Source: an uncultured Methanomassiliicoccales archaeon
Lineage (GTDB): Archaea > Thermoplasmatota > Thermoplasmata > Methanomassiliicoccales > UBA472
DNA: 64,000 bases
NCBI GenBank assembly: GCA_963695345.1
Contig: OY968769.1
Location: 2,336,001-2,400,000, forward strand
Direction: 5' to 3'
The notes under the pieces are model-generated. The model was not told where the DNA came from. It searched no databases and saw only the letters and a list, made by a program, of their open reading frames with translations. The position numbers and the translations under genes are program-made. Below are positions 17,121-38,738 of the stretch, piece by piece. Position 1 is the first letter of the stretch, and every line of letters starts with the position of its first letter.

Positions 17121-17153
17121 TGGATGGTACATCCATCATAAAAGGATTTAATA
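17121..17153 (+). promoter_or_regulatory. Palindrome TGGATG-GTA-CATCCA upstream of the TATA box (TTTAATA) of the corrinoid protein gene
   Basis: Perfect 6-bp inverted repeat 17121-17135, followed by a TATA-like element at 17147. Confidence 0.55.
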
Positions 17154-17208
17154 CAATCCTTTAGCATCCGAGGATTAGATTTCTTATTCCATTTGGGAGG
17201 ATAGGCGC

Positions 17209-17847
17209 ATGAGTGAGACTCTACAGAATCTGATTGATATTGTAATCAAGGGAAAGATCAAAGAGGCCAAGCCATTGGCCGAGAAGGCCCTCGCCGAAGG
17301 AATAACCGCGAAGGTAATCATCTTTGAAGGACTCAACAAGGCCATGGAGATCGTGGGACAGAAATACGAGAAGAAGGAGTATTTCCTGCCCCAGGTCCTG
17401 CTTTCCGCCCAGACTCTCTACCAGGCCCTCGATGTGGCCCTGCCAAGGCTCGATAAGGCCTCCATCGGAGCGCAAGGGAAGATCGTCATCGCGGTCGTGG
17501 AAGGGGACGTTCATGACATCGGCAAGAACATCGTAAAGGCGATGCTGACCGGTTCCGGCCTCACCATTCTGGACCTGGGCAGGGACATCCCGGTCAAGAA
17601 CATCGTCGATAAGGCAAAGGCGGAGAACGCGAGCATCATCGCCACCTCCACCCTCATGACGCCCACCCTGGCCGGAATGAAGGACCTCGAGAGAATGGCC
17701 AAGGAAGGCAACCTGAAACCGAAGATCAAGACCATTGTCGGCGGCGGCGCGACCTCCAAGGAATTTGCCAACCAGATCGGGGCCGACGGTTGGGCATATG
17801 ACGCGAACGAGGCAGTCAAGGTTATCACGGAACTGTTGAAGCGTTGA
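17209..17847 (+). CDS. Methyltransferase cognate corrinoid protein (MtaC/MtbC/MttC family)
   Basis: B12-binding DVHDIGKNIV (DxHxxG), EYFLPQVLLSA cap domain, IVGGGA; GGAGG RBS. Confidence 0.92.
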   Translation: MSETLQNLIDIVIKGKIKEAKPLAEKALAEGITAKVIIFEGLNKAMEIVGQKYEKKEYFLPQVLLSAQTLYQALDVALPRLDKASIGAQGKIVIAVVEGDVHDIGKNIVKAMLTGSGLTILDLGRDIPVKNIVDKAKAENASIIATSTLMTPTLAGMKDLERMAKEGNLKPKIKTIVGGGATSKEFANQIGADGWAYDANEAVKVITELLKR

Positions 17848-17887
17848 GGCGTAACAATTCCTAACCTTTTTCCTGTTTCCGAGACCC

Positions 17888-18619
17888 TCACGGGATACGG
17901 AACGGTCGTTTTGAACCATCGAAACCGCCGCTCCACATGCGGTGGTTCACCAATCCTCCCGCCAAAGCCGCCAACCCGACCATCACGTTCTGATCGCCGG
18001 AGGTACTGCCGTAGAGTGGATTGCCCAACGAGAGAGCGCCGAACACTATCGCAACCACGCCCATCGCCGCAAGCAGAAGTGCCAGGTTTCTAACCACCCG
18101 AGGGGCGAACCTTTCGGTCGGTTCCTTCAGCCTTGCGGTCCTGTCCCTGAACGTGAACAATAGCATGGAGACGGCGGAAACTCCAAAGACCCACTCGTAC
18201 GCGTTTCCGATCTCTTTGGAAAGCGAATCGGCCACATAATTCGGGAAGTGATGCTGGCCGAAATCACCGAGCAGGGGATAGAATACGGTCACCGGCATCT
18301 CCCACATGGAATCGAGTATCAAATGGGAAAGGAGTCCGGCTACCAGCGCCATCATTATCCAGGAACCTTTCTTCCTGTGGTAGGCGAGACCGATTACCAG
18401 GATCGCCATGAAGAAGAGGCCGCTGTGGGCATAGATGCGGCCAAAATCGATCGAACCGTTCAGGAGGATATGCCCCAGTGGCTTGTCGATAAGGTCAGGC
18501 AATATGCTGCCGATCGCCGCCAGGAGGATGACCTTCCGGTCCTGCAGAAACTGGAAGATCACCAGCCCGATCACGAGGCCTATGAAGAGGTGGCACATCA
18601 GCAGCATGTTCAACGCCAA
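17888..18619 (-). CDS. Membrane-bound metal-dependent hydrolase (YdjM-like)
   Basis: GSILPDLIDKP, RIYAHS, SHLILD motifs; multi-TM. Confidence 0.75.
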   Translation of the reverse strand: MALNMLLMCHLFIGLVIGLVIFQFLQDRKVILLAAIGSILPDLIDKPLGHILLNGSIDFGRIYAHSGLFFMAILVIGLAYHRKKGSWIMMALVAGLLSHLILDSMWEMPVTVFYPLLGDFGQHHFPNYVADSLSKEIGNAYEWVFGVSAVSMLLFTFRDRTARLKEPTERFAPRVVRNLALLLAAMGVVAIVFGALSLGNPLYGSTSGDQNVMVGLAALAGGLVNHRMWSGGFDGSKRPFRIP

Positions 18620-18781
18620 TCCTTGGAGAGCTATAAAAGGGGAACCGAGTAACTAACCAAGGGTAGGATAATGACCACATCCAAATTCGATTTTGAGGGA
18701 ATTGGATGGAATCTTTAATATCGGTATTGGTAATTCAATAGGATAGAGCCTGTCCCGACCGGGACGTGTTTCGAGCGGGCC

Positions 18782-20161
18782 ATGGTGGGGCTGAGAACTA
18801 TTAGAACCGGGAAACGAGTCGTTGGTATTCTCCTTGGCATGATGGTATTCATCGAGGGGATTTTCGCCATTTACATGGCCAAACCCACTTGGATTACTGG
18901 ATATGGGGGAATCACCCAATCGGCCTTGGTCCTGGCAGGGGCCCAACTTGCCATTATCGGAGCCTTGACGATTCTGGTCTGGGCCATCTACAAGGACAAG
19001 AAAATGGAAGGAACGATGGGGAAAGTGATTCCCCTCGTGATGCTGTCCGCCTCATTATTATTGATCATCGAAGGCATAATGGTAACATTCCTTTCCAACG
19101 ACATATTGATCGGCGCCACCCGCGGCGTTTCAAAGAAATACGTGGCCCTGATCGGCGTACAATTGTTCGTCATCGGGATGACCCAGCTGAGCCTTTGGAT
19201 CCGCCGCGAAAAGGAGCAAACCAACTGGCTGTTCGGCTGGGCGGCACTTTTCTTCTCCATCGTCCTGGTGGCCGAAGGACTATTCACTGCCTGCATTTCT
19301 GGGGACATCATCATCGCCGGCGTCGGCACGATCCCAAAGGGAACCGTGTTCCTATTGGGCCTTCAATTGTGCCTTCTGTCCGGGGTGTTGTACTTCATAC
19401 AGTTGTTCAAGGATGACGGCTTCCTTACTGGCCGACTGAGCAGGAAATGGATGAACCATATCATCGCCATCCTTGTGCTGGTCATCGCTCTTGAGAGCGT
19501 GGTCCTGGCCTATTTCACTGAGCCGATGGTCCTGGCATATTCAGATTCACAGGTGGAAGGGTTCGGAAAGCTATTCCTCAGCCCCATCGCCGCACAGCTG
19601 CTCGCGATCAGCCTGTTGGTGCTTTCCTCCTGGAAGTTGGCAGAGGCAAAGCTGGACCGGAAGTCATTGGTCGAGTTCTTGGGCATGGGCGCGGGAATCG
19701 CCCTCGCCGCCGAAGGCGCATTTGTGTTAGCGATCTCCGGCCGCATGCGGGTCCTGAACGAGATCGGTGGGATAAGGACAGGCACCGTCATGGCCGCCGG
19801 CCTGGTGCTGTTGCTGATCGGCATGGTGGTCCTTTTCTGCTGGCATTTCCGGAACGAAGGAATAGTGAAGAGGTTCGCAGGAAAAGGAAGACTGGACCTT
19901 TTCATGATGGTCATGGGTCTGATAACCGGCATCGCAGGAGTGGCGCTGTCGGCACTATCTGCCCGGGTGGTCATCGATGAAGTAGGCAGCATAGCCGCGA
20001 GATACATCGAACTCGCCGGTATCCAGCTTATTATTTTGGCATCGGTGATGGTTCTGATGTGGGTAATGCGGGTGGACGGGGTTACCTACAGGATGAAGCG
20101 CCTGTCCCTCATGACCGCGCTCTTCCTGATGCTCCTCATCCCGCCGGCCATCCTAATGTAG
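18782..20161 (+). CDS. Uncharacterised polytopic membrane protein with six internal repeats of about 70 aa
   Basis: Long hydrophobic ORF; recurring EG..-..G.I....V...G.QL units. Confidence 0.7.
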   Translation: MVGLRTIRTGKRVVGILLGMMVFIEGIFAIYMAKPTWITGYGGITQSALVLAGAQLAIIGALTILVWAIYKDKKMEGTMGKVIPLVMLSASLLLIIEGIMVTFLSNDILIGATRGVSKKYVALIGVQLFVIGMTQLSLWIRREKEQTNWLFGWAALFFSIVLVAEGLFTACISGDIIIAGVGTIPKGTVFLLGLQLCLLSGVLYFIQLFKDDGFLTGRLSRKWMNHIIAILVLVIALESVVLAYFTEPMVLAYSDSQVEGFGKLFLSPIAAQLLAISLLVLSSWKLAEAKLDRKSLVEFLGMGAGIALAAEGAFVLAISGRMRVLNEIGGIRTGTVMAAGLVLLLIGMVVLFCWHFRNEGIVKRFAGKGRLDLFMMVMGLITGIAGVALSALSARVVIDEVGSIAARYIELAGIQLIILASVMVLMWVMRVDGVTYRMKRLSLMTALFLMLLIPPAILM

Positions 20162-20233
20162 GCTCTATAGAGGGCTCAGAAACTATATTGACCCTCTATT
20201 CCCTTTTCCCTCATTCTACGGAGTGTATTATCC

Positions 20234-22189
20234 ATGGCACCGGAGGACAAGAGGATCTTAGGACTTGGGATCGACACGGGTGGAACATTCACCGATGCGG
20301 CAATTATCGACATGAAGACCATGGAGGTACTGACCAAGGCGAAATCTCCGACCACCTATCAGGACCTGTCCATAGGTCTTCTGGGCGCGGTCGATGGGGT
20401 AATCGCCTCGGGCCTGTTCGACGTGGACGAGATCAAGATCGTGGGACTTTCCACCACTCTTGCCACCAACTCGATCCTGACCGGCAAGGGCGGTCAGGTA
20501 GGCCTCATCTGCATCGGCTGGTCCCCTGACCGGGATTGGGACATGGGGACCAAGATAATCGAGACCGTGGAGGGCGGTCACACCGTAAGGGGCTATGAGA
20601 ACCAGCCACTGGATGTCGCGGCCCTCGAGAGGGCGATATCCTCGATGGCCTCAAAGGTCGACGCCATAGCCATCTCCAGCATCTTCAGCGTATACAACCC
20701 GGACCACGAGGTGCGCGCCCGCAAGGCCATCCTGGAGAGGGCGAACATGCTCACCGTCACCGGTCATGACCTGACCACCCAGCTGGGCATAAAAGAAAGG
20801 ACCATCACCGCCGTGCTGAACGCCAAGCTGATACCGATCATCGGGGACTTCCTGAACAGCGTGGAACATTCGATGGAGAAGAGGGGGATCAAGGGCCAGA
20901 TCATGGTGTATAAGGGTGACGGGTCGCTGATGAACATAGCAGTGGCCAGGACCAGGCCGGTGGACACCATCCTTTCCGGACCCGCCGCCAGCCTTATGGG
21001 GGGCAGGTTGCTGTCCAAACTGGAGAACTGCATTGTCCTGGACATCGGCGGAACGTCCACCGACATCGCTTATCTGGACAAGGGATTCCCGCGCATCAAC
21101 CGGGAAGGCGCCTCGGTCGGGAACTGGAGGACCCGGGTCAGGGCCATCGATATCTGGACCAGCGGACTCGGAGGGGACTCCGACATGCAGGTGGACCGCT
21201 ATGGACACCTGGAGATAGGGCCGGAAAGGGTCATGCCGCTGGCCTTGGCCTCGAAGAAGGACCCGGCGATCCTGGACAAACTGCGCCTGACCAGGCAGAC
21301 CACCTATTATATGGTGTACGACAGGGACACCGCCAAACTGAGCCACGAGGACCGTCTGGTGTACAACTTCCTCAAGGAGAACAAGGTGAGCACGTTCAAT
21401 GAGGCCAACGAGGGTGTTCCGGAGCTCTATTTCGTGACCGAGAACCTGCGCTCCCTCAAGGCCAAGGGATTCATTCTGCAGACCGGTCTGACCCCCACCG
21501 ACATCATGCACGTCAAAGGGATCTATACGCCCGGGGACGTCCTGGCATCAAGGGAGGGAGTGGAGATATTCTCCAATCTGGCGTGCGTGACCGTGGACCA
21601 TTTCATCGAGAACTTCATGGACGTGATGGTCACCAATATCGGCGGCGAAGTGGTAAAGAAGATCATATCGGACGAGGCCGGGGACATTATTCCGTCCCGC
21701 GCTTTGGACTATCTCATCAAGGCCATTCTGGGGGCCGCCGGATTCCGGACCATGTCCATCCAAGCCTCCCTCGACCGGCCGATAGTGGGGATCGGGGCGC
21801 CGGCACACGTGTTCGTCCCGGAACTGGAGAAGAGGATGAACGTCAAGGTCATCATCCCTCCGAACCATGACGTCGGGAATGCCGTCGGCGCGGTGTGCAG
21901 CAAGGTGTCGGAGATGATATCGGTGCAGGTCTACCCCCGAGACTACAAGTTCTGGGTGTTCACGCCTTTCGCCGACCCGCTGGAGTTCCACCACCGCGAG
22001 GAGGCCATCGAGAAGGCCAAGGAGGTCGCCTGCGATTACGTCAAAGAAAGGGCGCTGGCCGCCGGTGCCAAGAACGTCGAGGTCATGGTCGACGTGGACG
22101 AGAAGCGTTTCGCGCCAGGCTCGACCACGACCACTCCCACCTCCAACTGGACCGAGGTTAGGGCCAGAGCGACAGGAGACCCAATTTAG
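20234..22189 (+). CDS. Hydantoinase/oxoprolinase family (ASKHA ATPase) protein
   Basis: GIDTGGTFTD, STTLATN, TILSGPAAS, DIGGTSTD, GLGGDS, TPTD, GNAVGA motifs. Confidence 0.88.
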   Translation: MAPEDKRILGLGIDTGGTFTDAAIIDMKTMEVLTKAKSPTTYQDLSIGLLGAVDGVIASGLFDVDEIKIVGLSTTLATNSILTGKGGQVGLICIGWSPDRDWDMGTKIIETVEGGHTVRGYENQPLDVAALERAISSMASKVDAIAISSIFSVYNPDHEVRARKAILERANMLTVTGHDLTTQLGIKERTITAVLNAKLIPIIGDFLNSVEHSMEKRGIKGQIMVYKGDGSLMNIAVARTRPVDTILSGPAASLMGGRLLSKLENCIVLDIGGTSTDIAYLDKGFPRINREGASVGNWRTRVRAIDIWTSGLGGDSDMQVDRYGHLEIGPERVMPLALASKKDPAILDKLRLTRQTTYYMVYDRDTAKLSHEDRLVYNFLKENKVSTFNEANEGVPELYFVTENLRSLKAKGFILQTGLTPTDIMHVKGIYTPGDVLASREGVEIFSNLACVTVDHFIENFMDVMVTNIGGEVVKKIISDEAGDIIPSRALDYLIKAILGAAGFRTMSIQASLDRPIVGIGAPAHVFVPELEKRMNVKVIIPPNHDVGNAVGAVCSKVSEMISVQVYPRDYKFWVFTPFADPLEFHHREEAIEKAKEVACDYVKERALAAGAKNVEVMVDVDEKRFAPGSTTTTPTSNWTEVRARATGDPI

Positions 22190-22267
22190 GCCGGAGAAAC
22201 ATTGAAGTAATATAATCAAGATAATGCGGCTGAATATCTTATTTAAGATGTTATTGGAGGGAATTTA

Positions 22268-23278
22268 GTGGCTAGCAAAATGACTCCGAGGGAGCGCGTT
22301 CTCGCCGCTCTTGATTTGAAGGAAGTTGACAGGCCTCCAGTTGTATGCTTCACACAGAGCGCAACTGTTGATGTGATGGACGCGGTCAAGGTATATTGGC
22401 CCGAAGCCCACACCGACGCACACAAGATGGCTGAGTTGGCCATGGGTGTCCCGACGGTATTGGGTCTTGAGTCCGTCAGGATGCCGTACTGCCTGACCGT
22501 CGAGGCTGAGATCATGGGTTGCGTCGTAAACCTGGGTGGCCAGGACAGGACCCCAATGGTCAAGAAGCACGCGTTCGATGAGGACTCCGAGGTAGTAATC
22601 CCGGATGACATAACCTCAAAGGGCAGAATGAAGACCGTCATCGAGGCTGTAAAGATCGCCAAGGCAAAGGTCGGAAATGAATACCCGATCGTTGTCGGAA
22701 CCACCGGCCCAGTCACCATCGCGGGACACCTGGTCGGAACCGAGAACCTGCTCCTGTGGATGATCGTCAACCCGAGCGCCGTCCAGAAGTTCGTGGACAT
22801 AGCGACCAAGATCGAGAAGGAATACTGTACCGCACTGGCAGCCGCCGGCGCAGATGTCATCGTCATGAGCGACCCATCGTCCTCGACCGACATGATGTCC
22901 GCCGAACTGTTCGACCAGTACAGCAAGCCGTCGATCCGCGAGTGCTTCACCGACGTCGGTGAGACCAAGACCGTCCTGCACATCTGTGGCAACACCACCG
23001 TCCTGCTGGACCACATGATCGACACTGGCGTCAACGGCCTGTCGATCGAGGAGAAGGTCGAGCCGGAAGAGGCTGTCAGGCTGGTAGGCGGAAGGGCCGC
23101 TCTCGTCGGAAACGTCGGAGTGGTCAGGCCGTTGCTGCAGGGCACCCCTGAGGAATGCTACGAGGCAGGCAAGAGATGCAAGGAAGCCGGCTTCAACCTC
23201 GTCGCACCGGGATGCGGACTCGCGGCACGTGTGCCTCTGGCCAACATCCAGGCATTGGTCAAGGCAGTCAAGGAGTGA
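22268..23278 (+). CDS. mtaA: Methylcobamide:CoM methyltransferase (MtaA/MtbA family, UroD fold)
   Basis: RMPYCLTVEAE, Zn-binding LHICG and APGCG motifs. Confidence 0.85.
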   Translation: MASKMTPRERVLAALDLKEVDRPPVVCFTQSATVDVMDAVKVYWPEAHTDAHKMAELAMGVPTVLGLESVRMPYCLTVEAEIMGCVVNLGGQDRTPMVKKHAFDEDSEVVIPDDITSKGRMKTVIEAVKIAKAKVGNEYPIVVGTTGPVTIAGHLVGTENLLLWMIVNPSAVQKFVDIATKIEKEYCTALAAAGADVIVMSDPSSSTDMMSAELFDQYSKPSIRECFTDVGETKTVLHICGNTTVLLDHMIDTGVNGLSIEEKVEPEEAVRLVGGRAALVGNVGVVRPLLQGTPEECYEAGKRCKEAGFNLVAPGCGLAARVPLANIQALVKAVKE

Positions 23279-23286
23279 ACTTCTTA

Positions 23287-23320
23287 AGGGGGAGAGATCC
23301 CCCTATCAACGATTTTTTTC
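23287..23320 (+). terminator. Hairpin plus T-tract terminator after mtaA
   Basis: AGGGGGA-GAGA-TCCCCCT (7-bp stem, GNRA loop) followed by TTTTTTT. Confidence 0.6.
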
Positions 23321-23756
23321 TACATTTCAGTCCCGGATTATGAATATCGGATTTTTCAGTAGCCCAGCTACATAGCGATGCTCGGTGCCTTGAGGATCAC
23401 CTGTTTCTGCTGAGCCATTCGTAACCTGGGCGAAACGAAACCAGTCATGCTGTCATCGAGGAGGGCCGATAGGCCATTGGGTCCAGGGACTGGAATCACC
23501 CCGGGCCCCATTGATTCAACGATCGATGCTGCCCCGAGATAACAGAACTTACCACCGCCGTCCGGTCCACCGTACGAAGTCATAGGTCGTTCAGAACGGT
23601 TGATCTCAGTCCTCTACCAAGCCGACGCGGCAGGCTTCATGAAACAACCTTGGACCCTTCCATGTGGACGTTATTGGATCCATCCAGTCTTTCAGTGATG
23701 TGTACAGTTTTAAGAAAGCTGATATATAGACAGTATGCAATCTTCGAACGATTTTC

Positions 23757-25406
23757 ATGGCATACGGTGTTGCTCTAGACCTGGGAACCAGTGGATATCG
23801 TTCTCATCTGGTTGACCTTTCTAACAAAGGTAAGATAGTGTCGACCTCAATCACAATGAGACATCCGTTGCCGGGCGCGAACATCATGGACCATCTCCAT
23901 TTTTGGATGGAGAACGGGAGCGAGGTCGGACACAGCATTATAACGGAGACAGTGGACCACCTGATCGAATTGCATGGTGCCAAACCAGATGAGATAGAGA
24001 GGATCGCGGTCTGCGGCAATCCGGCCCAGCTCTCCATGTTCGAGAACATCGAGATCCGCGACCTGGCCTATGCTGGGCAATCGCTCCTCAGTCGGCTCAA
24101 CATCAAGGTTCCGGAACGGCGGGCACACGTGATCAAGGCCGATGAGCTGGGCCTCAGATCGGTCAATAAGGCCGCCGACATCCGTATCCCGCCATCCATC
24201 CGCCATGAGATCGGCGCTGATGCGCTGGCCATGATCATCAAGACCAAGCTCCTGGATAAAGATGAGACCTGCATGGTCACCGACTACGGCACGAACGCCG
24301 AGATGGGTCTTTACCATGAAGGGGAGCTCTACACCGGATCCGCCGCCGCCGGACCGGCAATGGAAGGGCAGTCGATCAAGTTCGGAATGCTGGCAGCCCC
24401 GGAGGCCATCTCTGATCTGGCGATAGGGCCGGATGAGATGTGGTACAATTACGTCCTCGACAAACACCTCCATCCGTGCAAGGCGGCGATGGTCGGGCCC
24501 CGGAACAACAAGGTCCAGGTCATCGAGAACCTGACCGCCCGGGGCATCACCGGAACCGGAGTGGTGGCCGCCGTGGCGATGGGCCTGGAGACCGGGATCA
24601 TCAAATTGCCCGGTATCGACACGCCAGACCACATGATACACTTGATGAACGGGATCACCTTCACCGAGCATGACCTGAAGGAAGCGGGAAAGGCCATGGG
24701 CGCCATCCGGGCGGGTCACCGGACGCTCATCCAGAATGTCGGAATAGACGATGCCGAGGTCAAGACCATGTACCTGGCCGGAGCGTCCGGAACATACGTG
24801 GATCCGATAAAGGCACAAAGGGTGGGCCTCTTGCCCCGGGTACTGGAGAGAACGGTCCAGGCAGGCAACACGTCGCTCATGATGGCCTATGATATCCTGG
24901 TGGACGACAACGGCCTGGACCACATGCAGGATGTGGCCAACTCGATCGCCTCCAAGCACATCATGTTCGCCACCAGCGAGGTCTTCGAGGATCACTACGT
25001 CAACGAACTGGCCTACTGGGATGAGGGTATGCCCTTCGACATGGTCAACACCATGCTGAAGAAGGCCGGATACCGGCCCATGCCCGAGATCGTACGCCCG
25101 AAGGAGATGATACGATTGGTAAGCAGCGACATCCCGGTCATCGGGGACCGAGGGCTTAAGACACTGGAGGATGTCGGGGTGTACCTCATCGGTTCCTTCG
25201 AGGGCTGCATTGGCTGCCAGAAATGCGAGCTGGAGTGTCCGGAGCGGGCCTTGAAGATCCTGCCGATGGGAGATGACAAGTTCAAGGTCAGGATAGCAAC
25301 CGAGTTCTGCCTTGGGACGGCGTGCAAGCATTGTGAAAATGTATGTCCCAAGAAGGTCTATAATCTCAGCAAGCTCGCGGTGGTAAGAAGAGGAGATGAC
25401 CAGTAA
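23757..25406 (+). CDS. ramA: Corrinoid protein reductive activase RamA/RamM family
   Basis: ALDLGTSG, HPLPGANIMDHL, TDYGTNAEM, SAAAGPAMEG, GITGTG; C-terminal CIGCQKCELECP and CLGTACKHCENVCP. Confidence 0.9.
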   Translation: MAYGVALDLGTSGYRSHLVDLSNKGKIVSTSITMRHPLPGANIMDHLHFWMENGSEVGHSIITETVDHLIELHGAKPDEIERIAVCGNPAQLSMFENIEIRDLAYAGQSLLSRLNIKVPERRAHVIKADELGLRSVNKAADIRIPPSIRHEIGADALAMIIKTKLLDKDETCMVTDYGTNAEMGLYHEGELYTGSAAAGPAMEGQSIKFGMLAAPEAISDLAIGPDEMWYNYVLDKHLHPCKAAMVGPRNNKVQVIENLTARGITGTGVVAAVAMGLETGIIKLPGIDTPDHMIHLMNGITFTEHDLKEAGKAMGAIRAGHRTLIQNVGIDDAEVKTMYLAGASGTYVDPIKAQRVGLLPRVLERTVQAGNTSLMMAYDILVDDNGLDHMQDVANSIASKHIMFATSEVFEDHYVNELAYWDEGMPFDMVNTMLKKAGYRPMPEIVRPKEMIRLVSSDIPVIGDRGLKTLEDVGVYLIGSFEGCIGCQKCELECPERALKILPMGDDKFKVRIATEFCLGTACKHCENVCPKKVYNLSKLAVVRRGDDQ

Positions 25407-26270
25407 GTGCGCATAATATCTGTCGTTGACAACATGTCGGGCACGTCCTTCAACTACTCCAAGTTGGTCAAGCGCCTGGACAGGCCGGACCGGCACTTCC
25501 TTTCGGAGCATGGGCTGTCAATACTGATCGAGACCGATGACGGCAAGAGGGTACTGGTGGACACCGGTGCCTCAAACATGGTTTTCTCCCATAATCTCAA
25601 TCTGCTGGGATTCAAACCGAACGACATCGATGCGGTCTTCATATCCCATGGCCACTATGATCATATGGGCGGCCTCATACCGATGATCGACGCCGGAAAA
25701 CCCATCTACGGCGACCCGAAACTGTTCTCCTCGAAGCGCTTCGCCGTCGCCATTGATGGCACCAAGAGGGACATCAGCGCCCCGAGGGAGCTAATCGACG
25801 CCCTGCCCCGGGCCAATCTCCACCTTTCCTCTTCCAGCGTGGAGATAGTACCAGGCGTGAAGACATCCGGGCAGATCGTCCGGGAGTCGAAGTTCGAGGT
25901 CCAGGACCGGTTCCTCAAGGAGGAGGAGATCGGTTGTCCGGTCAATGACGAGGTCTTCGAGGAGCAGGCGCTCTTCATCCAGACCAAGAAGGGCCTGGTG
26001 ATCGTGTCGGGATGCGGTCACCCCGGCATCGTGAACGTGGTCACCCAGGCGAAGAGAAGCTTCGACAAGAGGATATACATGGTCATCGGCGGGTTCCATC
26101 TCAGCTCAGCCAGCAAGGACCGGATCCTGAAGACCATGGACGGACTCAAGGCACTGGGCGTTGACCGAATAGCTCCCACCCACTGCACCGGTTTCGAGGC
26201 ATTGAAGATGATGTCCGACCGATTCGTCGGGTTCGATATGCTTCCCTCCGGCAGCGAGATCACGATCTGA
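25407..26270 (+). CDS. MBL-fold metallo-hydrolase
   Basis: EHGLS, SHGHYDH (HxHxDH), GCGHPG, GGFHL, HCTG motifs; GTG start abuts the ramA stop. Confidence 0.85.
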   Translation: MRIISVVDNMSGTSFNYSKLVKRLDRPDRHFLSEHGLSILIETDDGKRVLVDTGASNMVFSHNLNLLGFKPNDIDAVFISHGHYDHMGGLIPMIDAGKPIYGDPKLFSSKRFAVAIDGTKRDISAPRELIDALPRANLHLSSSSVEIVPGVKTSGQIVRESKFEVQDRFLKEEEIGCPVNDEVFEEQALFIQTKKGLVIVSGCGHPGIVNVVTQAKRSFDKRIYMVIGGFHLSSASKDRILKTMDGLKALGVDRIAPTHCTGFEALKMMSDRFVGFDMLPSGSEITI

Positions 26271-28141: not shown

Positions 28142-28328
28142 TCACGCCGATCTGGTCATGGGTCCGAGCAAGAGTGGGACAATGGTGATATAGCCGCCAT
28201 TGGCACCATCCTTTTTTCCGTCCCTTTATTGTGAACCGTCAATGATTTATATTATTGACATTGATTGGTGAAACATTGTAACACGAATCGTTTAGAAAAC
28301 GTTCGATTATTGCAATGGAGGGTGCTAA

Positions 28329-28799
28329 ATGGACGAAACGGACCTGAAGATCCTGAAGATGCTGAAGCAAGACTCCAGAGTAAGCCTCGGCAAGATCGCT
28401 GAAAAGCTAGAGATATCCAAGGCAACCGTCTCGCGCCGGATCTCCAAGATGGAGAACGACGACCTGATCTCCGGATATACCTTAATCACCAATTCCACCA
28501 AGCTCGGCCTGATGCGTGCCATCATCGGGATAGAGGTGGTCGGGTCGTCCCTGACCGAGGTCATCGAGGAGCTGAAGAGGTTCGAGGAGATCCAGAACAT
28601 CTTCAAGGTCTTTGGAGACCACAGCCTGATCTGCGAGGTCTATACCAAGAACGTAGACTCCCTCTACGACCTGATCCAGAGCCGAATCCTCAAGGTGGCA
28701 AGCATCCATAATGTCGAGGTGGACATTCTTATCGAGAAGATATCGTTGAACCCCGACGCCGAGTTGGACATGCTCAGCAAGGCCACATCCATTGTCTGA
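28329..28799 (+). CDS. Lrp/AsnC family transcriptional regulator
   Basis: MDETDLKILKML..DSR..LGKIAEKL.ISKATVSRRI HTH with C-terminal RAM domain. Confidence 0.92.
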   Translation: MDETDLKILKMLKQDSRVSLGKIAEKLEISKATVSRRISKMENDDLISGYTLITNSTKLGLMRAIIGIEVVGSSLTEVIEELKRFEEIQNIFKVFGDHSLICEVYTKNVDSLYDLIQSRILKVASIHNVEVDILIEKISLNPDAELDMLSKATSIV

Positions 28800-28856: not shown

Positions 28857-30075
28857 ATGAGCCGCAAGGCGAAGGTGGCCGCGCCCGGCCCGGAAGGCTA
28901 TCGCACCGAGGACCCGGAGGAGACCCTGTCCCGCATAGAACCCCTCACCAAGAAGGCAGGGATAAGCCGTGTCGCCGACATCACCGGGCTGGACCGTATC
29001 GGTATTCCGGTTTTCTCCACCATCCGTCCGTCCGCCGAGACTGGTGCCATATCCATCTACAACGGAAAGGGCCTGACCCCGGCCCAGGCCAGGATATCGG
29101 CGATAATGGAAGGCATCGAAAGATACAGCGCGGAAGTGCACGGCGACGTCCTGGTCAGGGAACTCATGGAGGATATGCTGAGCGGTGGGAACGCTCTCGA
29201 TCCGCGCGAGCTTATCCTTCCCATCTACACCAAAATGAGGCTGAAGGACATGCCTGTCGCCTGGGTGAAGGGAAGGGAGATCGGGAGCGAAAAGGAGATC
29301 ATGGTTCCGGCCAGCGCCGTCTATCATCCCTATGGCTCAGCGGCGGACCTGCCCTTGTTCCGTTCCAACACCAACGGGCTCGCCTCCGGCAATACCCTGA
29401 ATGAGGCGATATTGCACGGACTCTGCGAGGTCATCGAGAGGGACGCTTGGTCCCTGACGGAGGTAAAGAGGAAGGTCATCTCGGATATATCAATAGATGA
29501 AGAGGGCGGACTGCTGAGGGAGACCCTGGACCGGTTCACCTCCAAGGGGGTGGAGGTGCATCTCAAGAACCTCACCAGCGACATTGGCATGCCGGTCATC
29601 GCAGCGGCGGCGGACGACGTGCAGCTGCAGGATGCGGGTCTGCTGACCCTTGGCATAGGGGCGCACCCGTCCCCCAAGGTGGCGGCCCTGAAGGCTTTGA
29701 CGGAGGTGGCCCAGAGCAGGCTAACCCAGATACACGGGGCGAGGGAGGATGCGGTCATGGCGGACGGCAACCGGAAGCTTGGCTATGACCGTGTGAAGCG
29801 GATGAACCAGCTATGGTTCGGGAAGGCCGCCGCGATCAGGAACATAGAGGATATGGAAGTCTATCGACAAAGGGGACATCGAGGCCAATATTGCAGAGGT
29901 GGTTGACCGTGTCCACGCAGTGGGATTAAGGTCGGCCATCGTCACCGATCTGACCAGAAAGGAGATCGGCATACCGGTCGTTAGGGTGCTTGTCCCGGGT
30001 CTCGAGGTGTTCTCCATCGATTCTGACCGGGTGGGAAGAAGGTTGATGGAAGCGGAAAGGAGCCTTCGCGGATGA
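28857..30075 (+). CDS. ycaO: YcaO McrA-glycine thioamidation enzyme (methanogenesis marker 1), with a frameshift near 29855
   Basis: GISRVADITGLDRIGIPV, GKG, MEGIER, TNGLASGN, EVIERDA, TEVAQSR; the conserved tail IGIPVVRVLVPGLE continues in another frame to TGA 30075, overlapping the tfuA ATG. Confidence 0.88.
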
Positions 30076-30749
30076 AACCGGTCATCTTCCTGGGAATGAG
30101 CCTGCCTCTGGACGAGGCCAGAAAGATCCTTGACGCCGACTACCGTCCGCCCATCAGAAGAGGTGACCTGCCCCGGCTGGACGAAAGGACCCGGTGGGTC
30201 GGGATCATAGATGGGGTTTTCATGAACGACTGTTCGGTAGGTCACCGAGAGATCATTGCCCTGCTGAAGAGAGGGGTGACGGTGGTCGGAGGAGGCAGCA
30301 TGGGCGCGCTGAGGGCGTCCGAGCTGGGAGACCTCGGGATGATCGGGGTCGGCAGGGTCTATGAGATGTATCTCAATGGCGAGATCGAGGGCGATGATGA
30401 AGTGGCGATCATATTCAATCCGGAGACGAACGATCCCCTGTCAGAACCGCTCGTGAATATCCGCGCGACGCTGGCACTCGCCGTGGAAAGAGGGGTGCTG
30501 GAGGCGGACGCATCGAACCAGATTCTGGAAAAGGTCCGGGCGGAATACTTCCCTAGGCGTTCAATCCCGAGAACGGTCGAGCTAGCAAGGGAAATCTTGG
30601 ACCATCGAACGTTCAAGGATTTTACTGAATTCGTAAACATTTCAACGGTAGACCTCAAAAGAAGGGATGCTATCGCCGTATTGCAGAAAATCGAGAAAAT
30701 CCGAAAAAACGCAATCCTCGAAAAATCCGAAAAAACGAAAATTTCGTAA
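30072..30749 (+). CDS. tfuA: TfuA McrA thioamidation partner
   Basis: PPIRRGDL, IIDGVF, SMGALRASEL, DDEVA, SEPLVNIR, DLKRRDA motifs. Confidence 0.92.
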   Translation: MKPVIFLGMSLPLDEARKILDADYRPPIRRGDLPRLDERTRWVGIIDGVFMNDCSVGHREIIALLKRGVTVVGGGSMGALRASELGDLGMIGVGRVYEMYLNGEIEGDDEVAIIFNPETNDPLSEPLVNIRATLALAVERGVLEADASNQILEKVRAEYFPRRSIPRTVELAREILDHRTFKDFTEFVNISTVDLKRRDAIAVLQKIEKIRKNAILEKSEKTKIS

Positions 30750-30852
30750 AAATCGAAACCTCCGTCAACACCTTAAAAACCAAAAAAATTAACGCCGTTA
30801 ATGTTCATCATCTGACCATCTGGATGATGTTTTTGCGTTTACCGTCGTTTAG

Positions 30853-30890
30853 GATGGATGGATTCTCCATCCATCATCAAGCTTAAATCA
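30853..30890 (+). promoter_or_regulatory. mcr promoter: 10-bp perfect inverted repeat GATGGATGGA-TTC-TCCATCCATC directly upstream of a TATA-like TTAAAT
   Basis: Inverted repeat 30853-30875; TATA-like element 30883-30888; GGAGG RBS before mcrB. Confidence 0.6.
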
Positions 30891-30986
30891 TATTTGCTGA
30901 TACTATACCCTCGCAAGGGGAGCCGATTTTCACTAGATTGATGCAAATCTCTTGTGAAAATTGAGTTATTAAAAAGGAGGTAAAAC

Positions 30987-32318
30987 ATGGCAAAGTACAA
31001 GGACAAGGTGGACTTGTATGACGACAGGGGCAAGGTTATCGAAAAGCAAGTGCCCCTCGAGGCAATAAGTCCTCTATACAACCCAGCCATAAAGCGAACA
31101 GTTTCTCTAGCTAAGAGAACGATCGCGGTCGACCTAGGCGCTATTGAGAAAGGTCTCAAGACCGGCCGCGTCGGCGGCGGAGTTCTGCGCGGAAGAGAGA
31201 TGAACCTCGCGATTGTGGCAAACGCAGAGAAAATCGCAAAGAAGACCAAGGAAATCCTGAAGACCAGCAAGGATGATGACACTGAAGTCAGAACCTTGAT
31301 GGAAGGGAAGAAGATGATCGTCATCGTCCCGGAGACCAGGTTGGACGCTGGTGTAGAGTACACCACCGGATTCACCGCGGCCGCCGCAGCAGTGACGCAG
31401 GTCATCCTCGACGAGTTCGACGTTGACATGTTCCAGGCGAGCATGGTCAAGGCGGCCGTATGGGGAAGGTACCCGCAGACCATCAACTTCCAGAACTCCA
31501 ACCTGAAGTCTATTCTGGATGTCCCGCAGCTGAACGAGGGTGCTGGATACGCCCTCAGGAACATCATGGCCAACCACATTGTTGCCCTATCCGGCAAGAG
31601 CGCCATGAACGCCGCAGCACTGTCCTCGATATTCGAGCATGCCGCGTCATTCGAGATGGGCGACGCAATCGGCCCGTTCGAAAGGCAGCAGCTACTCGGT
31701 CTCGCATACCAGGGACTGAACGCCAACAACATCGTCTACGGCATAACCAAGGACAACGGCAAGACCGGAACAGTCGGTACCGTCGTCGAGTCCATCGTCG
31801 GCCGTGCGATCGAAGACAAGGTCATAAAGGTCAAGGAGAAGTTGCCGTCGGGATTCAAGATCTACACAACCAACGACTTCCCGCTGTGGAACGCATATGC
31901 CGCCGCAGGAATGCTCGCCGCAATCATGGTCAACATCGGTGCCGCAAGAGCATCCCAGGGTATCCCGTCAACCATCCTATACTACAACGACCTGCTTGAG
32001 CATGAGACCAGCCTGCCCGGTGTGGACTATGGCCGATCGATGGGTACGTCCGTCGGTATGTCATTCTTCTCGCACTCGATCTATGGTGGCGGCGGCCCCG
32101 GCCTGTTCCACGGTAACCACGTCGTTACCAGGCACTCGAAGGGATTCGTCAACCCAGTGATCGCAGCCGGTTGCTGTCTTGATGCTGGAACCCAGATGTT
32201 CTCTCCGGAACACACCTCTTCACTGGTGAAGGATGTATTCGGTGACATACCTGAGTTCAAGACACCGTTGAAAGTGGTCGGCAAGGAGGCCAAGAAAATC
32301 AAGGACCTGGTGGCCTGA
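30987..32318 (+). CDS. mcrB: Methyl-coenzyme M reductase beta subunit
   Basis: [41 protein letters not shown] motifs. Confidence 0.98.
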
Positions 32319-32320
32319 AA

Positions 32321-32740
32321 ATGAGTTCTGCTTCCGCTTCGGAGCAAGTTCCGTTACCGGAGATCCTGATCTTCCCGGCCAGGCTCTTAAAGGCCGAGAC
32401 CACCGAGAAACTCCTCAACAGGGTCTACTCGATTCCGAACGTCAGACACATCACCGTAAGCGGAGAGAACCTTCCAGAAGTCTTGAACGCAGGTCCTGGC
32501 AAGGGACAGCCGGTCAACCACCCCGAACGCCACATCATAACCATAAAGGGGGAAGAGGTCGAGCTCAGGCTGCTCGTAGGCAGGATATTTGTCGAGATCA
32601 ATGATATCGACAATGTGCCCAAGGCAATGGAGGATATCGAAGAGGTTTGCAAGGAATTGCTGCCTTTCGGATTCAACCTCGAAGTGGGGCGGTACTCAAA
32701 ATTCAGACCAACAGTCACCGACTACAAGAAGAACAGGTGA
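32321..32740 (+). CDS. mcrD: MCR operon protein D
   Basis: [32 protein letters not shown]; located between mcrB and mcrG. Confidence 0.93.
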
Positions 32741-32745
32741 TTCAC

Positions 32746-33522
32746 ATGGCAAAGTACGAAAGACAATTCTATCCAGGTATGACTGTGCCGGCGAAGAACA
32801 GGCGCAGGTTCATCGACCCGAGCAAGAAGCTCGAAAAGCTTCGCGATGTCGCGATGGATGACGTAGTCAAGATCATGGGCCACAGGGCACCGGGATCGGA
32901 CTACAGGTCAATCCACCCGCCACTGGACGAGGGCACAGAGCCCGACTGCTCAATAAGACAGATCGTCACACCGATCGAGGGAGCGAAGAAGGGAGACAGG
33001 ATCAGATATATCCAGTTCACCGACTCCGTCTATTTCGCCCCGGCCATCCCGTACCTCAGGGCCCAGATGTACATGTCCAGGCTCCGTGGGATCGATACCG
33101 GTACCCTGTCCGGCAGACAGATCATCGAAATGAGAGAGAGGGACCTCGAGAAGGTAGCAAAGGAGTACATCGACAACGAGACCTTCGACCCGGCCAGGAC
33201 TGGTATCCGTGGCGCAACTGTGCACGGACACGCATGCAGGCTGGACGAGAACGGGCTCATGTTCGACGCGTGGCAGAGATACAGGTTCAACGCCAAGACC
33301 GGAATGGTCGAGTACGTCAAGGACCAGGTCGCTATCCCGTTGGACAAGCCGATCTCCGTCGGCAAGCCGATGGACGAGAAGTGGCTCAAGGCGCACACCA
33401 CGATGTTCCGCGCGGACGATGTGGACATGAGGGCTGACCCAGAGGTCATGGCCCAGAACCTGAGGCTACACACACTTAGGACCCTGTGCGGCTACAAGCC
33501 GTTCGATGTCAAGGGGGAGTAA
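32746..33522 (+). CDS. mcrG: Methyl-coenzyme M reductase gamma subunit
   Basis: [41 protein letters not shown] motifs. Confidence 0.98.
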
Positions 33523-33525
33523 ACA

Positions 33526-35190
33526 ATGGCAAAGGAAAAGGAGAAGCTGTTCATGGCCGCCATGAAGAAGAAGTTCAAGGAGGACCCGACCGACGTCAAC
33601 ACCACTTACTACTCCTTCGGCGGCTGGAAGCAGTCCAAGAGGAAGAGGGAATGGGTCGAGCAGGCGAACAAGATCGCCAAAGAGCGCGGCATCCCGATGA
33701 TGAACCAAGACATCGGTGTCCCGATGGGACAGCGTGTCTTGATGCCGTACCAGCTCTCCCACACCGACATGTACGCTGAGGCAGATGACCTGCACTTCGT
33801 CAACAACGCCGCTATGCAGCAGGCCTGGGACGATATCAGGAGGACCGTAATATCCGGTCTGGACACCGCCCACAACGTCATCGAGAAGAGACTGCAGAAG
33901 GAAGTTACCCCAGAGACCATCAACCACTACCTGGAGACCGTCAACCACGCAATGCCTGGTGGCGCAGTCGTTCAGGAGCACATGGCAGAGTGTTCCCCGG
34001 CACTGACCGCGGACTGCTACGTGAAGGTCTTCTCCGGTGACGACGAGCTCATCGACGAGATCGACAAGCCGTACAGGATCGACGTCAACAAGGAATTCCC
34101 GGCAGACCAGGCCAAACAGCTGAAGGAAGCCGTCGGAAAGTCCCTGTGGCAGGTCATCCGTTGCCCGACCATCGTCGGAAGGGTATGCGACGGCGGTACG
34201 ATGTCCAGATGGTCTGCCATGCAGATCTCGATGTCCTTCATCAGCAGCTACAAGCTGGCTGCCGGTGAGGCTGCGATCGCAGACTTCGCGTACGCCGCGA
34301 AGCACGCGTCGGTCGTAGAGATGGGTACCATGATGCCAGCAAGGAGGGCCCGTGGCCCGAACGAGCCGGGCGGAATTCCGTTCGGATTCCTGGCAGACAT
34401 GGTCCAGTCCCAGAGGAAATACCCGGACGACCCGTGCAGGCAGGCATTGGAGACGGTTGCACTCGGTGCAGTCATCTTCGATCAGATCTACCTCGGATCG
34501 TACATGTCCGGCGGTGTCGGTTTCACACAGTACGCAACCGCAGCCTACACCGACAACATCCTCGAGGACTACACCTACTGGGCAGCTGACCTGATCAAGA
34601 CCAAGTACGGTGGACTCTGCAAGAGCAAGCCGACCATGGACCTCGTCAACAAGCTCGGAACCGAGATCAACTCCTACGCACTGGAGCAGTACGAAAGGTA
34701 CCCGGCAGCAATGGAATCCCACTTCGGTGGCTCGCAGAGAGCGACCGTTGCAGCCGCAGCAACTGGTATCGGTGTCGCGATGGCAACCGCCAACGCCAAC
34801 GCCGGTGTCAACGCATGGTACCTGTCCATGCTCCAGCACAGGGAGAGGCTCGGAAGACTCGGATTCTACGGTTACGACCTGCAGGATATGTGCGGCGCGT
34901 CCAACTCGCTGTCGTACAGGTCCGATGAGGGTCTCCCGCACGAACTCCGTGGCCCGAACTACCCCAACTACGCCATGAACGTCGGTCACCTGCCAGGTTA
35001 CGCCGGAATCGCTTCCGCCCCGCACGCCGCGAGGGGAGACGCTTTCGCCTGCAACCCGCTGATCAAGATCGCGTTCGCTGACAAGAACCTCCCGTTCGAC
35101 TTCGCCAACATCACGAAGGAGATCGGCCGCGGCGCTCTGCGCGAGTTCATGCCAGCCGGCGAGAGGTCGACCATCATACCCCCGATGTGA
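33526..35190 (+). CDS. mcrA: Methyl-coenzyme M reductase alpha subunit
   Basis: [70 protein letters not shown]. Confidence 0.99.
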
Positions 35191-35912: not shown

Positions 35913-35962
35913 TCCCGCACCGTCCGCGTTCCCCTTCGCGGAATGGCTATTGAACGAGAGTA

Positions 35963-36214: not shown

Positions 36215-36347
36215 ACTTATCACCGTTTTCGACTTCGAACACGGTGTACATCAAATCGCTCCTCCGAGTCGGCGGAGGTGGGGCCGATATGGTGAATAAA
36301 AATGGCCCGCCCGGGGCCTATCACCAAAAGAAGGACAATGGTTTCGT

Positions 36348-36902: not shown

Positions 36903-36993
36903 TATCGCGCTAATGTCTTCTCGAATAGTTTACCCTTTCCATTCAATGGCTCGAAGATGGTTATATATGCCAGTGTGGACGTTACAGAAATCC

Positions 36994-37284: not shown

Positions 37285-37289
37285 ATGGT

Positions 37290-37676
37290 TTAGCCTTCGA
37301 AGGACACGGACACGCTTCTTTTCAGTCCCAACCCGGTCACGACCTCCCCCGCCTTGATCATGGCCATCGGTATCGGGCATGCTGCGTGTTTCAGGTGTAT
37401 TCCGGCATGCTGATAGATTGGGTTGTTGCAGAAAGGCATCGTAATGATATCGAACATTCCGAAGAGGGGCATTTCTTCCGTCATTTTCTTGCTATAGGGG
37501 CACTGGGTTTCGATCGTGTAGGTCAGCTGCCGGTCCTCGTCCATCGTGACGCTGATACGGCTCTTGAACTGACACACTCCGGGATCGAGGGCCACTACCG
37601 TGACCGGACCCTTGGTCTTGGGGACTTCGTCCATGCCTCCAGGAATGGATGAAGGGGATAGAAATGCCTTTGGCAT
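37290..37676 (-). CDS. DUF6951-like Cys-containing protein
   Basis: DPGVC, TQCP, HAACPIP..MIKA.EV..GL pattern. Confidence 0.55.
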   Translation of the reverse strand: MPKAFLSPSSIPGGMDEVPKTKGPVTVVALDPGVCQFKSRISVTMDEDRQLTYTIETQCPYSKKMTEEMPLFGMFDIITMPFCNNPIYQHAGIHLKHAACPIPMAMIKAGEVVTGLGLKRSVSVSFEG

Positions 37677-37713
37677 CCATCCCTGGAAAGGCGGAAGGAT
37701 GCCATGGACCGGA

Positions 37714-38679
37714 TCAGGAGTTGTTCTTCCTCGTCTTGTTCAGCATCTCGAAGACCGAACCCTTGCCCACATCCAAGGTGCCAATGACGGCGATCGCTTC
37801 CTTCTTGCGCATGATGGGAACGACGACCACCGGAAGTCCGCGGAAGGGCCCGGTCGTGGCGGTCTTTCTAATGATGGTGTTCCGCTTCAACGATTCCTCC
37901 AGCAGTGGGCCGGTGAAATTGGTGTCCACCACCTCGCCCTCGTCGCACCTTACGCCATAGTGGTTCTTGCTCCTCATCGTGACCGGCAACCGGCCGAGGA
38001 GCTCATGAAGGGCAAGCGTCAGGCATTTCAGCTCATCCGCCTCGGTATCCTGGGACAGCAGGTTGGTTCCTTCGTTCCAGCACCGGCGTGATTGGTTTCC
38101 CAAGGCGAGCGCGGAGGTGACCGCGCCTTTCTCGGCCGCCTCGTAGGAGAACGCGGAACCGATGATGATCACGTCCCCGTCCTCGATCTTGAACTTGCTG
38201 CGGAGCGGGTCGACGGCCTCCTGGTCGGGAAAGTCCTCGTCCCCCGGGAATACGATCTTCCCTTCCTTGACGATCAGCGTGGTAGCTCCGACCGCTCCCG
38301 CCCTGACCGCCTCATCGCGCTGCTCACAACCGGTCTTGATCCTGTGGGACATCCCCTTCACAAGCACCGCACAGTTGTGTTTGCCGAGGGTGAGGTCGGA
38401 CATGTCCACCGACGCCACCTCCACCCCGGAGGTTTCCAGTTTCTTACGTCCCCGGTCGGTGATGACCGTTCCCATCCTGGTGTTCTCCACCGAACCCTCG
38501 CGGACCATCTTGTCCAATATGGTCCTGATGCTGCCTTCACCTATCTGGAGCGCATCGGCCAAGGCCTTTCGCCCTATCGGCCCCTGGCTGTCAATGACCT
38601 GATAGGCCTTCCAAATGTGGAAGAGACTGAATTTCGGTGTCGGGCCCCCGGCAAAATAAGAGTTGAACGCCAATGACAT
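37714..38679 (-). CDS. Putative transcription regulator: wHTH plus DUF4443 plus DUF2111
   Basis: GPIGRKALADALQIGEGSIRTIL HTH; QRDEAVRAGAVGA (DUF4443-like); ALHELLGRLPVTMRS..GVR..G.VVD.NFTGPLLE (DUF2111-like). Confidence 0.72.
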   Translation of the reverse strand: MSLAFNSYFAGGPTPKFSLFHIWKAYQVIDSQGPIGRKALADALQIGEGSIRTILDKMVREGSVENTRMGTVITDRGRKKLETSGVEVASVDMSDLTLGKHNCAVLVKGMSHRIKTGCEQRDEAVRAGAVGATTLIVKEGKIVFPGDEDFPDQEAVDPLRSKFKIEDGDVIIIGSAFSYEAAEKGAVTSALALGNQSRRCWNEGTNLLSQDTEADELKCLTLALHELLGRLPVTMRSKNHYGVRCDEGEVVDTNFTGPLLEESLKRNTIIRKTATTGPFRGLPVVVVPIMRKKEAIAVIGTLDVGKGSVFEMLNKTRKNNS

Positions 38680-38680
38680 T

Positions 38681-38738
38681 ATGGATGGATATATAATCCA
38701 TCCATTTAAACTTTTTATTAAACGGGCACCAGATGGTC
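38681..38738 (-). promoter_or_regulatory. Promoter of the wHTH-DUF2111 gene with perfect palindrome ATGGATGGAT-ATATA-ATCCATCCAT between TATA and start codon
   Basis: Inverted repeat 38681-38705; TTTAATAA on the minus strand from 38722; GACCATCTGG box 38738-38729. Confidence 0.6.

Follow-up and report, generated by a model that had tools for sequence, protein, structure and literature searches.

Three promoters around the mcr operon share an inverted repeat

We analysed a stretch of 64,000 nucleotides (the window) from the genome of an uncultured Methanomassiliicoccales archaeon, here called G000, which is a single 2.56-Mb contig of 56% G+C with a completeness rating of 85%; the names attached to close homologues agree with this order. 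The window contains the operon for methyl-coenzyme M reductase, mcrBDGA (30987..35190, plus strand; Pfam MCR_beta, MCR_D, MCR_gamma and MCR_alpha), a gene for a corrinoid (B12-binding) protein (17209..17847, plus strand; Pfam B12-binding and B12-binding_2) and a gene for a 321-residue candidate regulator (37714..38679, minus strand), in which Pfam recognises a PH0730-like_N / CggR_N winged helix-turn-helix (wHTH), DUF4443 and DUF2111. The last two are referred to below as the corrinoid gene and the HTH gene. A sequence-only reading of the window had proposed that the promoters of mcrB, the corrinoid gene and the HTH gene carry one and the same dyad, TGGA-N7-TCCA, and all three copies were confirmed from the sequence, at 30853..30875, 17121..17135 and 38681..38705, respectively. 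The evidence presented here makes it very likely that these dyads function as conserved cis-regulatory elements in a regulon centred on methanogenesis, for which the HTH protein is the candidate binder.

Conservation was followed in 40 related Methanomassiliicoccales genomes together with G000, a set of 17 genera and 7 families under anonymous labels; 30 loci were examined for each of the HTH gene, mcrB, the corrinoid gene and mtaCB. At all three orthologous promoters the motif is kept and its flanks diverge. The arrangement described by the sequence-only reading also proved to be conserved: mcrB and the corrinoid gene have the motif ahead of their TATA boxes (by 7 and 11 nt here), and in the HTH gene it stands after the TATA box and before the ATG.

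The best-conserved element belongs to the HTH gene itself. Its dyad, ATGGATGGATATATAATCCATCCAT (38681..38705), has 10-bp arms around a 5-bp spacer, fills the space from the TATA box to the start codon and ends 1 nt before the ATG (38679, minus strand). The putative TATA box, TTTAAAT (38704..38710, minus strand), abuts the dyad and lies 31 nt before the ATG, which points to an mRNA with no leader or almost none. All 29 usable loci (the 30th was incomplete) have TTTAAAT or TTTATAT directly followed by GGATGGAT-N5-ATCCATCC, the centre of which is 13–16 nt and the end 2–4 nt before the ATG. Of the 8 arm pairs, each of these 29 loci retains 6 or more, and 24 loci retain all 8. The site persists across protein identities from 100% down to 56%, while the sequence beyond it can no longer be aligned. 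An operator at a gene's own start that is conserved in the orthologues, here the best-conserved site of the three, is the usual signature of autoregulation. Second long paralogues of the protein (45–53% identity), found in genera g5 and g6, had no dyad before the gene (G017:C2:39029, G023:C10:29450, G024:C63:248 and G018:C18:594; loci L090–L093).

The dyad upstream of mcrB, GATGGATGGATTCTCCATCCATC (30853..30875), has 10-bp arms and a 3-bp spacer, with a conserved core GGATGG-N5-CCATCC at 30856–30872. It is placed 111 nt before the mcrB ATG (30987) and ends 7 nt short of TTAAAT (30883..30888, plus strand), which by position and conservation is the putative TATA box of the mcr operon and lies inside a conserved CAAGCTTAtAT block. 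The core can be read as two TGGAT-N5-ATCCA units that overlap with an offset of 4 bp, in agreement with the two overlapping copies seen in the sequence-only reading. Exact GGATGG-N5-CCATCC was present upstream of mcrB in 24 of the 30 orthologous loci, mostly as GGATGGAT-N1-ATCCATCC, with its centre 119–159 nt before the ATG and at a distance of 7–11 nt from the TATA box / CAAGCTTAtAT block. Among the six loci without the exact core, two offer less than 60 nt upstream of the gene, one (family f2) has a variant and three (family f6) have a single arm.

Further conserved blocks lie beside the dyads. The block taatCAATyGTTTA stands 3–5 nt upstream of the mcrB dyad (window 30841–30850; loci L035–L063), TTAACGATTGT stands about 15–25 nt upstream of the corrinoid dyad (L158–L185), and most genomes have CTGG about 35–40 nt upstream. 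All of these blocks may be sites for a second factor. Downstream of the mcr TATA box, a conserved start of the mcrB 5' leader (30913..30962, plus strand) consists of GCAAGGGGAGCCGATTTTC (30913–30931), about 25 nt after the TATA box, and a 9-bp stem in which 30925–30933 pairs with 30954–30962. Compensatory changes were seen in 6 of the 9 stem pairs (RNAalifold, 11 sequences), and the leader matched no Rfam family. The mcrB transcript is predicted to start at about 30910–30915, at the conserved GCAAGGGG. Parts of the mcr stretch were found in 20 runs of public metatranscriptomes; the four that were examined proved to be contigs of relatives covering coding sequence only, and their 5'-most piece over mcr starts at 30942, downstream of the promoter.

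The dyad of the corrinoid gene, TGGATGGTACATCCA (17121..17135), lies 73 nt before the ATG (17209) and ends 11 nt short of TTTAATA (17147..17153, plus strand), a putative TATA box read from the sequence and preceded by an A-rich stretch, ATAAAAGG, that resembles a transcription factor B (TFB) recognition element (BRE). It is a degenerate copy of the conserved TGGATGnTACATCCATCCA (TGGAT-N5-ATCCA followed by TCCA), which abuts the BRE/TATA block tAAAAGGnTTTATTA in 26 of 30 loci. The orthologous gene itself (63–91% identity) was found in 38 of 41 genomes, usually 10–20 kb from mcrB. In G000 the site reads ATCCATCAT, and the final CCA of the conserved site is lost. Owing to this loss, the sequence-only reading saw the same string, CATCCATCAT, around the TATA boxes of mcrB and the corrinoid gene. 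That likeness did not hold up as a shared feature, since it is particular to G000; relatives read ATCCATCCA at the corrinoid site, and the string occurs 6 + 9 times genome-wide.

The corrinoid gene heads a cluster that encodes an unknown 459-residue protein (18782–20161; no Pfam or NCBIfam match), a hydantoinase-like protein, an MtaA-type methyltransferase (NCBIfam) and a RACo/RamA-like activase. This cluster (window 15973–26270) is conserved near mcr and also includes a radical S-adenosylmethionine (SAM) protein and a metallo-beta-lactamase (MBL)-fold protein.

Enrichment of the motif and its targets across genomes

The sequence-only reading required the motif to exceed background, which it does. 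In the window we counted 8 matches to TGGA-N7-TCCA against 1.99 expected (standard deviation 1.55), a number reached by 1 of 100 shuffles, and 4 of the 8 fall in the three promoters. The half-site GGATGGA by itself showed no enrichment in the window, with 26 occurrences where 22.25 were expected. In the whole genome (2.56 Mb) we counted 17 exact copies of TGGAT-N5-ATCCA, against about 4.5 for other spacings or orientations; 14 of the 17 fall in the non-coding compartment, defined as non-coding DNA plus the first 90 nt of rough open reading frame (ORF) calls and amounting to 26% of the genome. With the half-sites set at 13 other spacings, or placed in everted or direct arrangement, each pattern gave 1–12 matches, mostly 3–6. 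One of the 17 matches lies inside an apparent tRNA anticodon arm.

Motif scoring of G000 used position-weight matrices built from the mcrB sites and from the HTH-gene sites. With the mcrB-derived matrix the mcrB dyad was the highest match (34.3), followed by the promoter of mtaCB, for methanol methyltransferase (26.7), the HTH gene (25.6) and a DUF255 gene (23.7), and noise extended to 20 at most. With the HTH-site-derived matrix the HTH-gene dyad was the top match (39.9). The more stringent pattern GGATGGA-N(0-12)-TCCATCC has its sole sites in the genome at the mcrB and HTH loci. The DUF255 site, at genome position 2468673, is 336 nt upstream of a gene for a thioredoxin-like protein and is kept in G007; its target is uncertain. 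A site at 1828893 (score 20.1) has a single arm upstream of an aquaporin-type gene and is doubtful.

An unbiased scan for exact GGATGG-N5-CCATCC in five other genomes returned 15 sites, all of which are promoter-proximal. Five are at mcrB, six at genes for corrinoid proteins, one at a DUF255 thioredoxin-like gene, one between a divergent cfbA/sirC-like pair and two at BtuF-like genes, and the call of cfbA, the F430 nickel chelatase, is above the NCBIfam cut-off. The motif is thus found upstream of several methanogenesis operons in several lineages. The dyads of GGATGG type at cfbA/sirC or BtuF-like genes were observed in G012 (genus g6) and G017 (genus g5).

Other features of the window and genome are as follows. 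Within the operon, mcrB (30987–32318), mcrD (32321–32740), mcrG (inside the ORF 32647–33522) and mcrA (33526–35190) all lie on the plus strand by Pfam match, and mcrC is absent from the operon (30987..35190). Directly upstream are ycaO and tfuA (window 28857–30749), known for a role in McrA thioamidation, and before these a gene for an Lrp/AsnC-type regulator (28329..28799, plus strand; Pfam HTH_24, HTH_AsnC-type and AsnC_trans_reg). An Rfam scan of the whole window gave a tRNA at 4744–4816 alone, and loci L064 and L065 were without a match. In L065 (G000:2464001–2473000) the signal of a NiFe-hydrogenase large subunit is split across overlapping ORFs (4932–6929), which, together with the 85% completeness of a single-contig genome, suggests frameshift errors in the assembly.

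The candidate regulator protein

All three domains of the HTH protein scored well above their Pfam cut-offs: PF22167 (PH0730-like wHTH) at 44.6 bits against 30.2, PF14544 (DUF4443) at 104.3 bits against 27, and PF09884 (DUF2111) at 99.9 bits against 27, the last over profile positions 1–82 of 83. NCBIfam holds no family for this protein or for the short paralogue described below. The N-terminal 85 residues superpose on winged helices of the MarR/CggR type (Z 10–12). Residues 16–198 superpose on PH0730 of Pyrococcus horikoshii (PDB: 2p8t) with a VIA Z of 19.2 and a root-mean-square deviation of 2.9 over 173 residues at 28% identity, and phmmer relates the two proteins at E 5.5e-15. PH0730 has the same winged HTH and DUF4443 module with a GEGSxRT-type recognition helix. 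Unlike the HTH protein, it is without DUF2111, and it was deposited by structural genomics as a 'hypothetical protein'; no regulon or DNA site for it was found in the literature searched.

Modelled alone, DUF2111 reached a predicted local distance difference test (pLDDT) value of 89.1. Nearly all of its top fold matches were PAS/GAF/Cache/IclR sensor domains, at modest scores (Foldseek E 1.3e-4 to 3e-3, VIA Z up to 8.0, template-modelling score about 0.5), which suggests that DUF2111 adopts a PAS/GAF-like sensor fold in the model. Its invariant residues include H225 and C245. A homodimer model gave an ipSAE of 0.71 against 0.00 for the best control, with the interface wholly in DUF2111 (residues 200–305), contact agreement between runs of at least 48% and a partner pLDDT of at least 78. 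Among proteins of solved structure, 20 of 30 homo-pairs attained the mark of 0.71, compared with 1 of 23 single chains. The HTH protein is therefore predicted by modelling to dimerise through DUF2111, an arrangement that would let two HTH domains read the dyad.

In outline, the predicted build of the protein resembles that of regulators of the IclR family, which have an N-terminal wHTH, a C-terminal PAS/GAF-like domain and palindromic operators that they bind as oligomers. The fold matches included IclR chains, at a Foldseek E of 2.4e-5 to 1.2e-3 with the whole model and a VIA Z of 5.8–6.8 with DUF2111. In contrast to that family, the HTH protein carries an extra DUF4443 between HTH and sensor and has no IclR Pfam domains, as no IclR-family match was obtained at E up to 0.001. 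Given this range of fold scores, the likeness appears to be one of common arrangement only.

Outside the order, DUF2111 occurs as a stand-alone protein of about 120 residues (116–166) in the 7 outgroup loci opened of 80 kept (L256–L262; Methanomicrobiales, Archaeoglobi, Methanomethylicales and other metagenome-assembled genomes). Those 7 loci had no HTH and no upstream GGAT dyad, and among the loci opened the fusion of DUF2111 to wHTH-DUF4443 was seen only in Methanomassiliicoccales.

All 41 genomes have the HTH gene. Of the 40 that have mcrB as well, about 30 carry the two genes on one contig, no more than about 9 kb apart. Family f6 departs from this pattern: the HTH gene lies away from mcr (at a distance of 0.93 Mb in G029, a complete genome), and none of the three promoters has more than one arm left. 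Members of family f7 differ as well. In genus g14 (G030 and G034) no GGATGG..CCATCC dyad was found; the site at the gene's own promoter is TTGGATA-N7-TATCCAA, and the wing of the protein reads VKKNG instead of ENTR(R/M)G. In G038 the pattern matched 10 times, and the HTH gene is not clearly preceded by a site. These cases suggest co-variation of site and protein, in few and related lineages.

A sister motif and a short paralogue

A second dyad, TTGGATG-N3-CATCCAA, contains the TGGAT-N5-ATCCA core in the same register. G000 has 6 exact copies and 3 with one mismatch, where rough arithmetic for a 14-base pattern gives expectations of about 0.01 and 0.4. The copies outside the window are at 221366, 338077, 1622435, 1963280, 1972066, 2144911, 2144944 and 2460641. 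The exact motif was found in 29 of 41 genomes, with 0 hits for the reversed control; of 72 genomes from the rest of the class, just 2 had it. Its neighbours are cobalamin and cobalt genes (CobQ, CobT, CobN, NicO, CbiT-like, SirC-like and BtuF-like binding proteins), along with a pyrroloquinoline quinone (PQQ)-like propeller. From these neighbours, the sister motif may mark a protein-based B12 regulon. Archaea are without B12 riboswitches, and Rodionov et al. reportedly predicted, in 2003, a palindromic 'CBL-box' upstream of archaeal cobalamin genes for a hypothetical B12 regulator; the sister motif has the look of such a signal.

G000 also encodes a short paralogue of the HTH protein, which consists of wHTH-DUF4443 only (194 residues; genome 2459654–2460238) and directly follows a SAM-synthetase gene. 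It was found in nearly all of the 41 genomes. The two motif classes meet at the corrinoid gene, whose conserved site is a hybrid, combining the sister-motif core with an arm of GGATGG type (G000 copy at window 17120–17136). In the divergent sirC-like/cbiT-like region, G000 and G023 have TTGGATG-N3-CATCCAA; in G012, cfbA is the partner of the sirC-like gene, with GGATGGATAATCCATCC in the region between them.

Which protein binds the dyads

The best-supported model, to which we assign a probability of about 0.58, is that the wHTH-DUF4443-DUF2111 protein binds the dyads, represses its own gene and acts on mcr and the corrinoid cluster. The analysis shows the cis-elements with their conservation and positions, the domains of the protein and its linkage to mcr; that the binder is the long protein and not its short paralogue is inferred, as are the sign of regulation and a ligand.

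Several observations weigh against the model. The arms are unequally spaced, GGATGG-N5-CCATCC at mcrB and GGATGG-N9-CCATCC at the HTH gene, which is 4 bp wider. The common unit must therefore be TGGAT-N5-ATCCA, central at the HTH gene, and a single rigid dimer geometry fits both spacings only via inner or overlapping units of this form. The corrinoid site of G000 scores 13.1 on the mcrB-derived matrix, inside the noise, a low value that follows from the loss of its last CCA, and it is one mismatch away from each of the two motif classes. The mtaCB site was present in 12 of 30 loci examined, 4 of the 30 having less than 1000 nt of upstream sequence. Moreover, the recognition helix GEGSxRTIL is common to the long protein, the short paralogue and PH0730, so that sequence cannot tell which of the two paralogues reads the sites. 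Orthologous promoters change motif class between genera, and the two classes are thus not cleanly separate regulons. The remaining points concern the sign of regulation at mcrB and the Lrp/AsnC-type gene, and are taken up where these are discussed.

The strongest competitor, which we nevertheless consider rather unlikely, has the short paralogue binding all sites of the TGGAT-N5-ATCCA type, alone or in competition with the long protein. The long gene would then be mainly a target, and mcr, the corrinoid proteins and B12/F430 synthesis and uptake would form one cofactor-linked regulon. Its recognition helix is of the same type (GEGSMRTII, compared with GEGSIRTIL), it is present in nearly all 41 genomes, and a sister-motif site sharing core and register stands just behind its gene in at least four of them (G000, G028, G035 and G039). 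The hybrid corrinoid site and the class switching of promoters between genera also agree with it. On the other side, the operon of SAM synthetase and short paralogue has no dyad in about 250 nt upstream in G000, and it is the promoter of the long gene that holds the best-conserved site and the long gene, not the short, that is linked to mcr. The wings differ too, VKQTG in the short and ENTRMG in the long protein, and GGATGG-type sites occur only in families with the ENTR wing in the long protein.

Binding by the Lrp/AsnC-type regulator encoded directly upstream of ycaO-tfuA-mcrBDGA (28329–28799) is improbable, though its gene is linked to mcr even more tightly than the HTH gene is. The gene occurs in 35 of 41 genomes, always 2–3 kb from mcrB and also in family f6, where the HTH gene is unlinked, which counts against the HTH protein; G030 and G034, where no GGATGG dyad turned up, gave no match to it either. 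Lrp-like proteins recognise 13–17-bp dyads whose centre is AT-rich, and from a position upstream of the TATA box they are able to activate; in format, the dyads described here seem to resemble Lrp boxes. However, the promoter of this gene (about 28229–28254) has no GGAT dyad and carries GTCAAT-N10-ATTGAC around its TATA box instead, and genus g7 (G013 and G019; 91% and 80% complete) keeps the mcrB and HTH-gene dyads with no Lrp match found. Binding by this protein would leave the strongest site, at the start of the HTH gene, unexplained, and the CAATyGTTTA / TTAACGATTGT block beside the dyads would be a more natural Lrp site.

That the dyads are no protein operators at all, and instead arose by chance, from a dispersed repeat or mobile-element end, or as an RNA-level hairpin, is very improbable: the arms are indeed low-complexity and (GGAT)n-like, and the half-site alone is not enriched in the window, but the motif is enriched at one spacing and in one orientation, conservation is confined to about 20 bp at a fixed position relative to the TATA box, and the element at mcrB and the corrinoid gene, being upstream of TATA, is not transcribed. 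The repeat or mobile-element variant was rejected, as the flanks of the sites are unrelated.

Proposed mechanism and relation to known regulators

Under the favoured model, in which the HTH protein is the binder, the three dyads would be operators of one transcription-factor system across Methanomassiliicoccales, with TGGAT-N5-ATCCA as the unit of GGAT/ATCC repeats. The product of 37714–38679 would bind as a dimer held together by DUF2111. At its own promoter, the dimer would sit between the TATA box and the start of the leaderless mRNA, resulting in self-repression. At the promoters of mcrBDGA and the corrinoid/methyltransferase cluster it would sit immediately upstream of BRE/TATA, where it would most likely help to recruit TFB and the TATA-binding protein (TBP) and so activate transcription. 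An alternative at these two promoters is repression by occlusion of the BRE; the mcrB dyad ends 7 nt from the TATA box and overlaps the BRE, and repression is therefore also compatible with the site. In some lineages, the protein could act in the same way at mtaCB, other corrinoid genes and cfbA. A small-molecule or redox signal sensed by DUF4443/DUF2111 may set the occupancy of the sites.

The proposed signs of regulation follow a positional rule known for archaea from Ptr2, SurR and TrmBL1, by which a site upstream of BRE/TATA activates and a site downstream of TATA represses. Ptr2, SurR, TrmBL1 and TrmB are dual-function and autoregulated, and belong to unrelated families (Lrp, ArsR-like and TrmB) with different motifs; to our knowledge, none of them controls mcr. 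The Msr proteins and MreA of Methanosarcina regulate methyltransferase and corrinoid genes, and they too are from other families (wHTH-DUF1724 and TrmB-like) and another lineage. We know of no mcr operator described for them. The sequence-only reading knew of no described regulator of mcr in this lineage, and none was found in the literature searched; that search also returned nothing on DUF4443, DUF2111 or 'CBL-box', and no description of this system.

A broader reading joins both motif classes, and we offer it tentatively, as possible rather than probable. The two wHTH-DUF4443 paralogues would form a lineage-specific, cofactor-sensing family on the TGGAT-N5-ATCCA core. The long form, having gained the dimerising, PAS/GAF-like DUF2111, would be a direct master regulator of mcr and the methyl-transfer genes, and the short form a protein substitute for the B12 riboswitch that controls the supply of cobalamin and cobalt. 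Hybrid sites at the corrinoid genes would match the methyl-transfer machinery to cofactor availability. If this reading is true, the long form would be the first direct mcr regulator in any methanogen.

Significance for methane formation in Methanomassiliicoccales

Methyl-coenzyme M reductase catalyses the methane-forming step, and the control of its genes is poorly understood. For the gut- and wetland-dwelling Methanomassiliicoccales, the HTH protein is the first candidate regulator of methane formation. From the analysis come an operator defined to about 20 bp, a short list of conserved targets (mcrBDGA, the corrinoid/methyltransferase cluster and, in some lineages, mtaCB and cfbA) and a single candidate protein with a predicted sensor domain. 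Regulation by this protein would be the first function assigned to DUF4443, DUF2111 and the PH0730 fold, and it would tie methane formation, through its control, to a sister regulon that serves cobalamin supply.

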